From: Harriotta raleighana
Taxonomy: Eukaryota
Reading direction: 5' to 3'
Length of the DNA stretch: 64,000 nucleotides
Assembly (NCBI GenBank): GCA_050575255.1
Contig: JBNZDD010013717.1
Coordinates: 2,683,351-2,747,350 of the forward strand
Part shown: positions 1 through 6,637 of the stretch, piece by piece
Numbering within the stretch: position 1 is the first letter of the stretch
How the letters are laid out: every line of letters begins with the position of its first letter
Notes under the pieces: generated by a model
Databases searched by the model: none
Told to the model about the DNA's origin: nothing
What the model saw: the letters and a program-made list of their open reading frames with translations, nothing else
Position numbers and translations under genes: made by a program

Positions 1-540
1 AAATAAAAATGACAGTAGTTCCTTTGGGGAAAGAACTGGGAAACAAATCAGAATACAGCACAAAGATTTATAGAGTATATAATGCCTTTAGAAAAATGAG
101 TGTTTGACTCCTAATTGACCTTTGAATATACATAATAGACTCATAATTCAGTTACCTGTATAAGATAGTATATCTGTTACATGAGAATATTTTTTTTTAA
201 TATGTTAAGCCTTTTTAAAAAAAAACTTTTCTGTTTCTTGATTTTCCTACCCATGAATTGTACCCCACATTACCTTGTGGAAGTATGCAGGTAAAAAAAA
301 ATGCAGGTAACTGACTGCCAAGTATCTGTTTATCAGAAGCAGTCACTGTGCACCCATTTATCATTATCAGGGTAAAAAACTAGCAGAGGTCTGCCAAGGT
401 TTGAACAGTTGTGGACAAAATTTTAAAAGTGATAAACAATTTTTCTAAACAGTGCAAAGGAAGCACAAAATAATTATCAAAGCCAAAATACCAACAGCCA
501 GACTGACAATGAGGATTATTAGGACTATGATAAAGATTAG
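1..540 (+). pseudogene. NEPN: Nephrocan (NEPN)-like pseudogene, 3' part (last LRRs, LRRCT cap, acidic tail)
   Basis: 311-445 reads LTAKYLFIRSSHCAPIYHYQGKKLAEVCQGLNSCGQNF. This aligns without gaps to the mouse nephrocan C-terminus as I recall it (LKAKGTDVKGGQCAAPAERQGESWMSSKKILRQCEHHL). Upstream is LFLD..P(W)NCT at about 231-264 (cf. LYLDGNPWNCTC). Downstream is the acidic tail DNEDY*DYDKD* ending at 540. Stops and frameshifts are present. Position just upstream of NUS1 fits the Nepn/NEPNP locus. The 5' boundary is uncertain. Confidence 0.7.
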
Positions 541-1169
541 GAATGACCAAAATTTGAATGGCTTTAAAATACTAATTGCACGTGTGGTGTGACCCATAAC
601 CAAAGGGCTAGATAAAAGTAAACTAAGATATACTTTTCCAAAGTTGGTATTCAGGCTTGTAAGCTTTCCCAGGCTCACTCATTGCTGGAGTCCATCCAAC
701 CCAGCAGTGTGTTCAGCCCCCACCTGTGACCATATGACTGACCTCTATTAAACACACAGCATCGCAGAGCTAAGAATTACAATGGGTGGAAAATTACTGA
801 TTAATCACATGAATGCTTTACAACTGGCTCACATACAAATTGACAAAGTAACTAACACTTGTTTTGAAGTAAAACAAACAATTGTGGTTTCAAAGTAAAC
901 AAACTGTAAGGTCTAAAAAGGAAGAACACTCATTCAGAGGGCATGCTCCCACTTCATAAGCAATAGTCTAGACTGACATTGGTTTTAAACAATTGTGTAG
1001 GTTTTGAATTGCCAACAGCGAGTTAAAGTTTTACTGTACACATTCATATTTATTCGATTCTGATACCCAACTCAGGAATGGGGCTTAAATCCAACAGTTG
1101 AGACTTGTACAATAAGAATACCTCAGTTGGTTTTGATGCATCATTGGTGTGCAAGCATTCAGGCATTCT

Positions 1170-1400
1170 GCCCCCAACCTCTGAATTCCATCCCACATTC
1201 CTCTGCCTCGCCCCATACCTAGTGTCCTTCAAGTCCAGCTTCAAAACCTCCCCTTCAACGGTGCCATCAGTCACCCTACTTCCCCTCCCTTCCCTCCATG
1301 ATCCAGACCCCAGCTCGGTTCTGAAACTTTGACTGTCCAGCACTTTGGGATGTCCTCCTGATGCGAAATGTGCTATACAAATGTAATTTTGTTGTTGATG
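1170..1400 (+). mobile_element. L2 LINE 3' fragment
   Basis: Contains ctgcccccaacctctgaattccatccc and the family tail ctgtccagcactttgggatgtcctcctgatgcgaaatgtgctatacaaatgtaattttgttgttg, which recurs across the window. Confidence 0.75.
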
Positions 1401-1517
1401 CAGAAACTAAATTGTGCCTAGACTTGCAGTACAGCCCAATTCTGTTGAAAGGTGATATCATGTGTGCTTACAGTGTGGGTAGGCTGTGGGCTCATATGCC
1501 AAAAGTGTAGTAGTATA

Positions 1518-1712
1518 TCATAGAATTATATGGAACAGAAGAAAGCCATTCGGACTATCATGCCTGTGCCTGTTCTTTGAAAAGAGTTGTCCAAATCAAT
1601 CCCACTCCCCCGGTCTCTCCCCATTAGCCCAACAAACTTGTCCTCCTCCAGCGTCTTGGGACGTCCTCCCGACGTAAAAGGCGCTCTATAAATGTAATAT
1701 TGTTGTTGTTAT
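1518..1712. mobile_element. CR1 3' end (minus, about 1518-1630) followed by an L2 tail (plus, about 1645-1712)
   Basis: catagaattatatggaacagaagaaagccattcggactatc matches the CR1 end at 35497 and 51401. cagcgtcttgggacgtcctcccgacgtaaaaggcgctctataaatgtaatattgttgttg is the L2 tail. Confidence 0.7.
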
Positions 1713-1735
1713 TAACTTGCCAGCTAACTTAGCAT

Positions 1736-1915
1736 GTGAGTCAATGTTTTGAGTCCACGATCCTTCGTCAGAACTGGGTCCAGTTCTGATGAAGGGTCAT
1801 GGACCCGAAACGTTAACTCACTTTTTCTTTATAGGTGCTGGAGGACTTGATGAGTGTTCCCAGTGATTTCTGTTTTTTTCAGATTTCCTGCATCTTCAGT
1901 ATTTTGCATTTTTGC
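1736..1915 (+). mobile_element. Penelope-like element terminal remnant with inverted duplication
   Basis: 42-bp inverted arms (1736-1777 and 1780-1821) carrying the hammerhead motif, followed by a pLTR-like tail (gtgctggaggacttgatgagtgttcccagtgatttctgttt...cagatttcctgcatcttcagtattttgc). Confidence 0.7.
1782..1818 (+). ncRNA. Minimal type I hammerhead ribozyme motif (Penelope-associated)
   Basis: AGUU (stem I) - CUGAUGA - A - GGGUC aug GACCC (stem II) - GAAA - CG - UU - AACU (stem I partner). Stem III is reduced to the palindromic ACGU. Activity is untested. Confidence 0.7.
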
Positions 1916-2097
1916 TTAACTTATCTCATGGTCTTCTCACAGCAAGACAACCAGTCAAAACTGGAGCTGACAACAGCAATAACATGACAACACAGAAGTG
2001 GGACCAGTGAACATTTTTATTCCAAACAATTATACATACTGTTGTAATCGGTTGAAACTGTATACTCCACATTCACCAAAAATTATCAACTTGAATA

Positions 2098-2440
2098 AAT
2101 AATAATTCTTGCATTTGATATAGCGCCTTATCACATCTTCTAGATGTCTCAAAGTGCTTCACAGAATATACTGTAAAGTGCATTGACTGTATATTTTGTG
2201 CGCAAACCACAGCAGCCAGTATCCCCAAAACAGTCGTGGATTGAACTGACCAATTTTTTTTNCTGTAAAGTGCATTGACTGTATATTTTGTGCGCAAACC
2301 ACAGCAGCCAGTGTCCCAAAAACAGTCGTGGATTGAACTGACCAATTTTTTTTGACGCATTATTATCAGGGGCGTGGAGCAAGGAAATTTGCCCAAGGTT
2401 TCACTCTGCCAGGAATTGAAATGAATTCTCTCACTTGTAA
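2098..2440 (-). mobile_element. tRNA-derived SINE (short family); internal duplication at n2262 is likely artefactual
   Basis: Reverse complement of the SINE at 44245-44560, with (AAT)n tail and ttgcatttgatatagcgcc. Confidence 0.8.
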
Positions 2441-2899
2441 GATTTATACTTAGGAGTAAGATTTATAATCAAGAATCCACTTAAAAAAAACTTCTCATGC
2501 TTTGCCCCCCCATCGAGTATGTATTAAACTATTAGAATCACTAATATTAGATTCCATTGTCAGGATTGAGTCGCTGGATGAGGTGAGAAAAGTTCTGCTC
2601 TCAAGTCCCAATGCAACTTCTTCACTTGCTTCCATCCCACATTCAAAACCATCTTTTTACCCCAAATTCAGCCATTGTTGTTCAACGCTTTCACCCAGCA
2701 CCTTGACTTCTCAACCCCCACCCACGATACCCCAATCCACACCATCGATTGACCGCACTACTCAGTTCCTCCACTCCCCACCCTCGGTTCTCCCCCCCAC
2801 AACTCCCCACCCTCAGCTCCTCTTCCCACCCTCAGCTCCTCTCCTCACTCCTCAGCTCTTCCCCCACCCCCACAGCTCTATTCCACCCGCCCCCCCCCC

Positions 2900-3120
2900 C
2901 AACAAGGTTTGTGACGTCACTTGAGTGTGACGTGTCAGACACAGACCATCCGGAATCACAGACCACGTGATTCCGGACTCAGCCCTGGGGGGGGGGGGGG
3001 CGGGGCCTGTGACGCGGCGCGAACGAGAACCAATCGCCTGGCTCCATGTCTTGTGGCCGGGGTCATGGGGTCACAGCGAGGAGAAGATGGCGGCCGGCGT
3101 GTTGAGGAGTTGGCAGTGAC
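2900..3120 (+). promoter_or_regulatory. NUS1 promoter at the 5' edge of the CpG island
   Basis: CRE palindrome GTGACGTCAC 2911-2920; TGACGTGT 2928-2935; E-box CACGTG 2964-2969; GC box near 2995-3006; CCAAT 3030-3034; YY1-type AAGATGGCGGC 3084-3094. CpG-rich sequence extends to about 4140. Confidence 0.7.
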
Positions 3121-3319
3121 TGACTGAGAGGAGTGTAACTCCTGAGCTCACCACCCTCCCCACCCCCGCCTCCACACCCCTTCTTCCCGCTCCAAATGAA
3201 AACATTTTTCTTTTATAAAAAAAATAGGGGTAAAAATAGTCATTTCGACTCTTTCCTCCCACCTTTTCCCGTCCTGAGGGGGTGAGTGAATGTGAGACAC
3301 ATTAGTGCCTGGGTAGTAC

Positions 3320-3680
3320 TTTTCGAGGGAGATAGTGGGAGAGAGAGACAGTGAGAGAGACAGCGAGAGAGATAGTAGGGAAGACAGAGAGGGAGAGAGA
3401 TAGTTGGGGGGAAAAAACTAACAGAGATATTGGCGGAGAGGGAAAGAGAGAGGGAGAGGGGGGGAGAGAGAGGGAGAGGGGGGGAGAGAGAGAGAGGGGG
3501 GGGGGGNNNNNNNNNNNNNNNGAGAGGGGGGGGGGTGGGTGTGTGGGGGGGCTGGATTGCTACTCCTGACGGGCAGATAATATAAGATAAGAACAAGCGT
3601 GCGAGAGATAGCGAGTGCACTAGTGACTGAGAGGGAGATTTGACAGTGTGAGTGAGTGGAGGGAGGGAGGGAGGGAGTGA
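3320..3680 (+). repeat. GA-rich low-complexity tract with a small gap
   Basis: (GA)n, (GGGAGA)n and (GGGA)n runs are directly visible. Confidence 0.85.
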
Positions 3681-3710
3681 GGCAGTCCCATGTCTCAGTG
3701 AGGCCCGGCC

Positions 3711-4032
3711 ATGCCTGTGCTGGAGCTGCTGTGGCGGGCTCTGCACGCCCTGCTGGCGCTCCGCAGGGCGGCGGCCTCGTGGCTGCGCGGTGGAATGCGG
3801 GCCTGGGAGCGATGGAACTCGGCCCTGGCGCTGGCGTTCCAGGGCGCGCGGAGGAACAAGCGGAGGAGCCAGGCCGCGCGCTGCCGCTCGGACTCGCGCC
3901 GCCTCAGGAAGCTGCCGCTGCACCTGGGTGTGTTGGTGGCCGACGAGGAGCCCAGCTACACCGACATCGCCAGCCTGGTGGTCTGGTGCATGGCCATGGG
4001 CATCTCCTATGTCAGCGTCTATGACAGCCAAG
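3711..4032 (+). CDS. NUS1: NUS1 (NgBR, dehydrodolichyl diphosphate synthase complex subunit) exon 1
   Basis: MPVLELLWRALHALL...[41 protein letters not shown](G) matches the NUS1 N-terminus (human ...KLPVHMGLV...[29 protein letters not shown]). Start context gccATGc; donor AAG|GTAAGG, phase 1. Confidence 0.96.
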
Positions 4033-4047
4033 GTAAGGGGCTGCTGC

Positions 4048-4440
4048 CCGACCGAAAGGGGTGGACCCGAAACGTTTGACTCGGCTCTTCCCGCGGGTCT
4101 CCGCGGAGGCTGCCGGACTTGCTGAGTTTCCCCCCAGCGACTTCTCTTGTCTCTCTGGGTTGTGTGTGTCTGTGNNNNNNNNNNNNNNNNNNNNNNNNNN
4201 NNNNNNNNNNNNNNNNNNNNNNNNNNNNNNNNNNNNNNNNNNNNNNNNNNNNNNNNNNNNNNNNNNNNNNNNNNNNNNNNNNNNNNNNNNNNNNNNNNNN
4301 NNNNNNNNNNNNNNNNNNNNNNNNNNNNNNNNNNNNNNNNNNNNNNNNNNNNNNNNNNNNNNNNNNNNNNTGGTGTGTGTCTTGTGTGTGTGTGTGTTTT
4401 TGTCAGATTCCCGACATCTGTAGTATTTTGTGTTTTTTTT
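4048..4440 (+). mobile_element. Degenerate Penelope/hammerhead remnant at the start of NUS1 intron 1, interrupted by (TG)n and a gap
   Basis: tggacccgaaacgtt (4062-4076) is identical to 1800-1814. ggacttgctgagtttccccccagcgacttct and tcagattcccgacatctgtagtattttg parallel 1844-1907. Confidence 0.65.
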
Positions 4441-4959
4441 ATATATAAAAAGGAAGTGGCCTTGCTACGGGCAGAGCAGAGTGTGCAATGGGTTGCACAG
4501 ATTTATTTATTTAAGATTGTTTTATTCCCAGCCTACTCCAATCTGGAGGAATAATCATCATTGGCGCAAGTGATCGCCCCATCCTATAGTGAACTTTAGG
4601 GTGTTCAGGACTTATTTAAGTCCAGAGTTTCAATGTGACAAGATTTGCTGGACTATAAACGAACGCTTTTGCGTCCGATTTTCAAATTTGTGAGTTCAGC
4701 TTTGAAGTCTTGAAAAATCTCAGTTGGGAATTATCCCGTGGGAGCACATTCAAAGGGGCTGGGATGTCTTGAAAGAGAAAGATGGCTTAATCCTTTGGGT
4801 GTGACTCTTTTCACCCGAAATGCCACAAATGCATTTTTCTTATTGCTTTAAAAGAGGGATGATTGTAGGGCAATTACACGATTTATACCTCATAGAATTT
4901 GGTTCTAAAGAAGGATCAGCAAGGCCTTAGGGAATTTCATCATATGACTTCCATTGTAC

Positions 4960-5290
4960 TATGTTCTATCGGGTGTTTGATGGACACCAGGGCCTGGATG
5001 ATTGCAAATTTTCTGCAGCTCAATGTCGCAAGACGGAAACCATACTGTTTGACTCTCGCCAATGTCTCCCCTATAGGTCTGAACTCCTCAATCTCCCTGG
5101 CCTCTCCCTTAGACTCACTGAACATGTGCACAACTTGGGCATTAGGTTCGATCCCCAGCTTTCCTTTCCATCATATATTCGTTCCCTCCCTACCTGCTTT
5201 GCTTCCCCCCTCATTCCTCCACCGCTGGCTCCAGCCTCCTGTTCATCCATCGTCCCCTCCGGTCCACCATCAGTGGCCGTGCCTTATCAT
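4960..5290 (+). mobile_element. L2 LINE ORF2 fragment (degenerate)
   Basis: WMIANFLQLN, then KTETILF and VHNLGIRFDPQLSFPSYI in shifted frames, typical of the region C-terminal to the L2 RT. Confidence 0.8.
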
Positions 5291-6637
5291 ATCTTCGAGA
5301 CGTCTCAAAGCGCATCACAGAATACCTGTATATTGTAAAGTGAAGTCACTGTGTCTTGGTTTAATGTCTCATTGACAATGCAGCACATTAGATCAAAATT
5401 ATAGTTTGCATACATTCAAATTTGAAAAGAAACACCATCTAAACATTTCTTAGATTTTTCAAAAAAAGATATAGTTTCTTTGTACATTTTTTTTTACTGG
5501 TTTGCTGAAAAGGCGGCTATAATGGGCTCTGCAGATCTATGGGGCCAAAACTCTCCCGACCTCCAAGTATTATGTAAATTGGAGAAATATGTAGATTATG
5601 GATTCTGTCACCTTTGAGGTGAAATTTAATTAAAGCTGAAAACTCAATATCGAGTACATTGCATTGACAGAATAATTACAATTGACACCCCCTACTGTTT
5701 ATCAGTAAAACTAAAATTATTTCTTGAACCTGCCCTTTTTATGTCCCTGGAGTTCTTCTAGGAAAGGTTGAGCATTTTAGTGGGACTGATATAATGGCAA
5801 TATAATAATAATCCTTGCGTTTGAAATAGTGTTTTATCATGTCTTCAAGACGTCTCAAAGCGCGTTGCAGAATATCTTGTAAAGCAAATTGACTATTTTG
5901 TGGGTGAAACTACAATATAATAAACGGGTTGAAAAGTGGGTTTATTAATGCTACATAACAATGGTCCGTTGTGTATTTATACAATGAGGGAATCTGTCCA
6001 GTCTAATCTCAGGTTATTTGTTTGTTCTTAGTGTTTATTTAACTCTGGTAACTTGCACAATCTACCAGTGTGACAGAAATATAAGTGACTGAAAGTAGGT
6101 TAAGAATATAGAGCAATTGTAGACTGGCCTACTTTATTTTCATTCTGCAATATGCTATTTTTTCTTATTTTGCTAAGTACTGAAAATGTTCTTTCTTTGG
6201 TCAATATTTAAGCACAATTTGCATTTCTGAAGATCTGTGTGTGTACAGAAAATCACAGCTGCTGCACAACTGGAAATTCAATCAGTAGTTTCTATAGTAT
6301 ATTCAGCAAAGACTTTGGATACTTTATTTAAGGCGCCTGAATAAATCACTGGTAGTTTAGCCTATCTGAAAGTAATCCAGTAGAAATGTTTTGTGTGTGT
6401 CTGCTTGTTTATTTTACCCTTTTGTGGGATTGGGTAAAGATAGTTTTTTTTTAAACGATTCAAAATACAATCTGCTTTTTCCTTTTTATATAGTATTTTA
6501 AAAGTATACTGGTAAATGATTGACATCACAGTCCTAATTCCTCAATCTGCTGCAGTTGGAGGTTCAATTTCAAATTCACTGACGTATTATGCTCTGAGTA
6601 ATTGTTTCTCTTTGGCCCCAACATCTATAATATAATA

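Follow-up and report, generated by a model that had tools for sequence, protein, structure and literature searches.

The palindrome and its surroundings

The window, that is, the whole 64-kb stretch of DNA analysed here, contains the first coding exon of NUS1 and, upstream of it, a palindrome with an intact hammerhead core that lies on the NUS1 sense strand (Table 1). The two arms match as reverse complements at 35 of 42 positions (1736-1777 against 1780-1821), and all seven differences are transitions, just as an earlier note on this DNA had reported. In the direct comparison of the arms, four of the seven fall in CpG sites, and the plus-strand fold of both arms contains four G-U wobbles and three A-C mismatches; this pattern, in which the arms differ mostly at CpG and so leave wobbles and A-C mismatches, counts in favour of a decayed inverted copy. 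The 42-bp arms are not the limit of the feature as had been supposed, since the right arm extends to about 1914. Both arms begin at position 1 of the repeat family described below, which is the family's common 5' boundary, and the tail is present on the right arm only. The outer flanks may retain a decayed target-site duplication, but the gapped score of this flank pair, with its 7-nt core, is matched by 6-8% of random flank pairs; because the duplication is not significant, a later deletion of the outer part of the left arm is possible.

Table 1. Features of the palindrome and of the neighbouring part of NUS1, in window coordinates.
Feature	Position	Strand	Basis or remark
Possible decayed target-site duplication	1722..1735 with about 1914-1929	+	7-nt exact core
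Left (inverted) arm	1736..1777	-	Family positions 1-42; dead hammerhead copy, no tail
Head-to-head join, 2-nt junction	1778..1779	.	Direct sequence
Right arm, 5'-truncated Penelope-like pLTR end with ~36-bp tail	1780..1914	+	Aligns to family positions 1-141
Minimal type I hammerhead motif	1782..1818	+	Sequence, descriptor, folding; activity predicted only
Stem I	1782-1785 paired with 1815-1818	+	Sequence
Core CUGAUGA	1786-1792	+	Sequence
Single unpaired A	1793	+	Sequence
Stem II	1794-1798 paired with 1802-1806	+	Sequence
GAAAC	1807-1811	+	Sequence
ACGU palindrome	1810-1813	+	Sequence
GUU	1812-1814	+	Sequence
NUS1 exon 1, coding part (neighbour, outside element)	3711..4032	+	PDB NUS1 chains, E 3e-17
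Splice donor of NUS1 exon 1	4033	+	Read from sequence
Second, more decayed copy of ribozyme unit	4048-4148 and 4395-4438	NUS1 sense strand	NUS1 intron 1

The plus-strand arm does carry a complete minimal type I hammerhead core, as had been claimed from its sequence. In the standard hammerhead numbering, the right arm has the full minimal set (C3-A9, G12-A14, A15.1-U16.1, H17, and helices I and II), and in addition a palindromic 15.2-16.2, an unpaired base before helix II and G10.1-C11.1. The layout of the motif would place the cut after 1814, the position that had been predicted. The left arm, judged by the same minimal type I set that the right arm passes, is not a hammerhead. Its damage had been described as a change of GAAA to AAAA together with a weakened stem II, which is right (the change removes G12) but incomplete; G16.2 is lost as well, so that the ACGU palindrome for dimer pairing is gone from this arm. 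A minimal-hammerhead descriptor finds only the 1782-1818 site in the real 64-kb window, and gives one match in 300 simulated windows. An Rfam scan of window positions 1-6000 returns no hammerhead family match at E values up to 1. A match to the MIR7723 microRNA precursor (28.9 bits, against an Rfam gathering score of 200) was rejected as a generic hairpin match.

The distance of about 1.1 kb to the NUS1 promoter given in the earlier note is plausible, as GC and CpG contents climb from about 2500-3000 onward, but the promoter is placed from this composition only. The copy of the ribozyme unit in NUS1 intron 1 starts roughly 15 bases past the splice donor, and its halves are split by a TG-rich stretch; it is the only other family copy found in the 64-kb window. 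Its core is broken (U4 is changed, there is an extra core base, the stem II loop has 2 nt, and an extra U is present at the cut site), and the broken core and extra base at the cut site would make it a poor dimer partner. With tblastn, no match to an RT or endonuclease remnant was found in the 64-kb window. Between run X1 and the window there are 19 mismatched positions in NUS1 exon 1, so that X1 looks like a related species; its contigs on the palindrome locus are family-level repeat contigs only, which are uninformative on expression, and X1 contig depth is very high at 1586-1771 and 2051-2422. The surroundings also contain a 92-bp tandem duplication (98% identity) around a single N at 2171-2353, possibly an assembly overlap artefact, and pieces of further short repeats of very high abundance, which are likely the ends of SINEs or LINEs, at 1336-1397, 1647-1708, 2098-2200, 5279-5327 and 5804-5894. 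Repeat sequence suggests a cartilaginous fish as the host.

The repeat family, its coding links and its ends

The right arm is a dispersed repeat, as the genome-wide motif count suggested in the earlier note shows. An internal 30-nt motif has at least 1374 exact matches, exact intact-ribozyme motifs number at least 508, and exact head-to-head joins (within 20 bases) at least 72; these exact-pattern counts are all lower bounds, and the reversed-pattern control is 0 for each. Among 40 scored of 4781 first-look DNA-search candidates, the best full-length other copies are 83-87% identical to the right arm (1780-1914).

In some copies the sequence upstream is pyrimidine-rich and then gives way to a fragment of a GIY-YIG endonuclease. 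In a genome search with this fragment, a ribozyme unit lies at most 900 bp downstream on the same strand at 27 of 30 endonuclease loci (the 30 were retrieved from 150 scored matches, and one of the 27 is the source locus of the query). At one locus, L167, the order is RT, endonuclease, ribozyme unit. Its upstream part has a 260-aa open RT stretch, and the locus matches the full-length homolog P0010 over amino acids 341-897, across RT and endonuclease (tblastn, E 5e-99). Homologs of the L167 RT stretch (457-1058 aa) contain RVT_1 in nine cases out of ten and GIY-YIG in two. A CX2-5CxxC linker, as CX4CxxC, is located between RT and endonuclease in translated copies (e.g., L044 and L167), and is present in all five long homologs examined of the 10 returned. 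According to PMC8557442 this linker marks the Neptune and Nematis clades, and the CX4CxxC form in our translations points to Neptune or Nematis without separating them. Pfam scores the family's own decayed RT at E 0.016 and endonuclease homologs at E 5e-4 or weaker, all below the curated cut-offs; it returned no match for the endonuclease query or for two read-through frames of L049, and a PDB search with the RT stretch returned none. The 7 larger loci examined include no full-length copy whose 5' end is intact. The Penelope origin and inverted terminal duplication that had been proposed are upheld by direct tests, namely the endonuclease linkage, the RT of L167, the joins and the inverted arms, and the flanks do show the likeness to Penelope pLTRs on which that proposal depended, the right arm being a ribozyme-bearing pLTR end.

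Several observations concern individual loci. L167:1396-5056 is a large inverted pair, one arm of which has RT, endonuclease and ribozyme but no tail, and the other endonuclease, ribozyme and tail; it is basically a kilobase-scale version of the window palindrome. Near-identical tandem pairs in L166, L168 and L170 (98.7-100%), which resemble the 92-bp duplication in the window, may be assembly duplications, and were excluded as partial-tandem evidence. There are at least two subfamilies (L044, L036, L037, L040, L050, L059 and L060 versus L005, L006, L010 and L023), which diverge just upstream of the ribozyme and have the ribozyme start in common. In L006, an ATG from family position 60 onward begins a stop-free frame of 27 codons through the tail, a candidate ORF start; this resembles other Penelope pLTR-plus-tail units.

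The ends of the family were mapped in the 90 copies that head the list of 1374 matches, less one at a contig edge and three duplicates, which leaves a sample (n=86) that is biased to copies with the 30-mer exactly preserved. The 3' ends are bimodal, with 40 at family positions 94-112, 38 at 132 or beyond, 7 between and 1 below, and the ~36-bp tail is the gap between the two preferred ends. An adjacent inverted arm (within 40 bases) is found in 32 of the 86 copies. Both outer ends are canonical in 21 pairs, for which the short-end class was widened to family positions 94-121; the tail is on one arm only in 18 and on both in none (p=7e-4), and three pairs have two short ends. In 11 of the 32, the inverted arm ends elsewhere, as at the window locus. 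The combination of a short arm and a tailed arm, also as at the window locus, recurs at L061, L062, L066 and L074. Target duplications of at least 8 nt accompany 14 of 84 copies, compared with 1.0% of mismatched pairs.

At the other end, 16 of the 86 copies begin upstream of position 1, 22 at positions 1-5, 32 at 6-30, 4 at 31-38 and 12 at 39-59. The pile-up at positions 1-5 has p=4e-8 relative to a uniform distribution over 1-59, for a test interval that was picked after seeing the data. With 10 added reference copies, 21 of 86 still begin at 1-5, which disfavours a reference artefact, and the starts in the 21 upstream bases increase from 3 to 7. Upstream of the ribozyme the family has a pyrimidine tract and CAG, and the intron of Drosophila Penelope ends at helix I (PMC4209133). 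A spliced-RNA origin of the pile-up is disfavoured, as 16 non-inverted copies that begin at the pile-up share no upstream exon (one unrelated 18-nt match). Cleaved RNA as a template was likewise rejected, because starts do not accumulate at the cut site; only 2 of 70 copies start at positions 34-38, versus 5.9 if starts were uniform. The accumulation of 5' ends at the ribozyme's first bases, and not at the cut site, suggests that uncut RNA was copied as far as its start.

Predicted RNA behaviour and origin of the palindrome

The earlier note held that a transcript crossing both arms would fold into a hairpin that masks the ribozyme, and folding agrees with this. Both arms together are predicted at -57.0 kcal/mol on the plus strand (-53.1 on the minus strand), versus -8.4 for the ribozyme fold, so that the ribozyme would be masked in any such RNA. 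For the right-arm ribozyme, nearest-neighbour energies, which like the other folding energies ignore tertiary contacts, put the active dimer at -14.9 kcal/mol, two monomers at -16.8 and the best dimer fold at -24.9. By these values the active dimer is not favoured, and cleavage of an RNA that has only the right arm would likely be poor. Penelope minimal hammerheads in the literature show weak cleavage even in dimeric form (PMC4209133), and for the Anolis element PMC11167929 describes ribozyme cleavage only with the element's protein.

We consider it very probable that the window feature is a 5'-truncated, head-to-head inverted copy of the ribozyme end of an endonuclease-positive Penelope-like element, likely made in one insertion and likely in neutral decay since. 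Direct support comes from family membership, the link to endonuclease and RT, how often the inverted form occurs, the two preferred outer ends and the pile-up of 5' starts. In the proposed mechanism, the element's protein would nick the target and begin reverse transcription inside the element RNA at the tail end (family position ~141), and uncut RNA would be copied back to its 5' end, where the ribozyme begins, to yield the tailed right arm. The shorter inverted left arm would be added next, with the new DNA folding back to prime its own extension or with the other nicked strand as primer. Neutral decay would follow, with the ribozyme locked in a hairpin in any RNA that crosses both arms. According to PMC3846280 and PMC8557442, Penelope insertions are truncated at the 5' end, and many have a neighbouring inverted copy and a tail on one side. 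In Anolis, the element's protein both cuts and extends the two strands of the target, and reverse transcription in that system uses uncut RNA and begins from two internal sites bounding the tail (PMC11167929).

Three other explanations can be weighed against this one. An exapted regulatory ribozyme or hairpin would have kept an internal promoter, so that an RNA on the NUS1 sense strand begins between the arms, undergoes cleavage in a dimer or with the help of protein, and affects NUS1. The core is indeed intact and on the NUS1 sense strand, and the right arm begins at the family's 5' pile-up, at what we take, by the initiator consensus, to be an initiator-like sequence. The intact core is kept in 5 of 42 sampled family copies anyway, the active dimer is energetically unfavoured, and the only other copy found in the window is the poor partner in intron 1. 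In addition, set against the family majority, the right arm has differences at 3 of 41 positions in the ribozyme part and at 12 of 71 beyond it, which is no significant excess conservation of the ribozyme (Fisher p=0.25). An internal promoter is described for Drosophila Penelope (PMC2377424), but on balance we regard exaptation as very unlikely. The significance that the earlier note implied for the palindrome is not supported, since the arrangement is common in the family and the window copy shows no sign of selection. We infer that the right arm kept its core by chance, and the window copy, likely an inert scar merely near NUS1, is predicted to have no effect on that gene.

It is just as hard to credit an independently spreading, non-autonomous palindromic element or retrozyme that is copied as a preformed hairpin unit. 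Short units and palindromes are both numerous, and animal retrozymes have been proposed to derive from Penelope pLTRs (bioRxiv 10.64898/2026.07.22.740005), but the junction sequence varies by locus among the listed joins and arm lengths vary too, so that each palindrome looks built anew. The copies also grade continuously into longer 5'-truncated elements with endonuclease, and retrozymes are tandem direct repeats, whereas the window locus is a single inverted pair. A left arm of separate origin, by later local inverted duplication or by a second independent insertion, is scarcely more probable. This arm ends at family position 42, which is not a canonical end, and the gapped score of its possible target duplication is reached by random flank pairs at the rate given above. 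Both arms, however, start at the same family base and have diverged similarly from the family (4 of 41 positions in the left arm, beside the 3 of 41 in the right), and the adjacent inverted arms in 32 of 86 copies, 11 of them ending off canonical sites, make such a pair unexceptional.

The window palindrome is thus real and was correctly recognised as Penelope-derived, but it is ordinary, and its structure is already published; as one of at least 72 such joins, the locus itself has little weight beyond cautioning against taking intact ribozyme cores near genes as regulatory. Only the family-level end statistics merit follow-up. The family is a large natural data set for studying the way in which reverse transcription starts and stops in Penelope-like elements; it also bears on whether cut RNA is ever used, a question that PMC11167929 and PMC8557442 treat as open. 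Tentatively, the stumps could be read as a fossil record of the Penelope cycle, that is, as run-off cDNAs from two internal sites (~105 and ~141) on uncut RNA that starts at the first base of the hammerhead. The arms of a pair would then stem from different start sites, which fits a single event with asymmetric priming of the two target strands, and the ribozyme would serve to remove templates or to gate translation and not to prepare the template. If true, the run-off reading would account for the many solo minimal hammerheads in animal genomes. In a literature search that covered few subscription journals, we found no paper devoted to this family or to a 5' pile-up at the ribozyme start.

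Comparison with known systems

The motif closely resembles the metazoan Penelope minimal hammerheads of PMC4209133. Both have the full core, one base between 9 and 10.1, G10.1-C11.1, a palindromic 15.2-16.2, a 4-bp helix I and no loop 3, and both occur mostly as dispersed single copies. Helix II has 5 bp in the window motif versus 7-8 bp in the Schistosoma families, and the cut triplet here is GUU, with activity only predicted.

At the level of the element, the family is similar to the Poseidon element PAc of Anolis (PMC11167929) in that the ribozyme sits at the pLTR-ORF junction, the two preferred 3' ends are one tail-length apart, and there is no sign of cleaved RNA as template. It differs from PAc in having the Neptune/Nematis linker, CX2-5CxxC, and in a candidate start codon that would lie at family position 60 and not at stem II. 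Animal non-LTR retrozymes (bioRxiv 10.64898/2026.07.22.740005) are likewise short, non-coding, pLTR-derived type I hammerhead units, but they consist of direct repeats in tandem and contain two or more complete ribozymes. The window locus is one inverted pair with one intact core, and was not classed as a non-LTR retrozyme for lack of tandem repeats.

A close counterpart in overall form is Adineta Pen2a, which has an inverted pLTR, a one-sided 30-40-bp tail and a target duplication (PMC3846280). The window copy is a ~180-bp stump without RT or endonuclease, and its own target duplication is only possible. The family and Pen2a are alike in family-level target duplications and strong 5' truncation, and the head-to-head inverted 5' copy with its one-sided tail is that of Pen2a and of the general scheme (PMC3846280, PMC8557442). 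Three features of endonuclease-positive Penelope-like elements are found, with the coding part absent from the window copy: the RT-endonuclease-ribozyme order at L167, a hammerhead in the pLTR downstream of the endonuclease, and an adjacent inverted, 5'-truncated copy with a 30-40-bp tail at one end.
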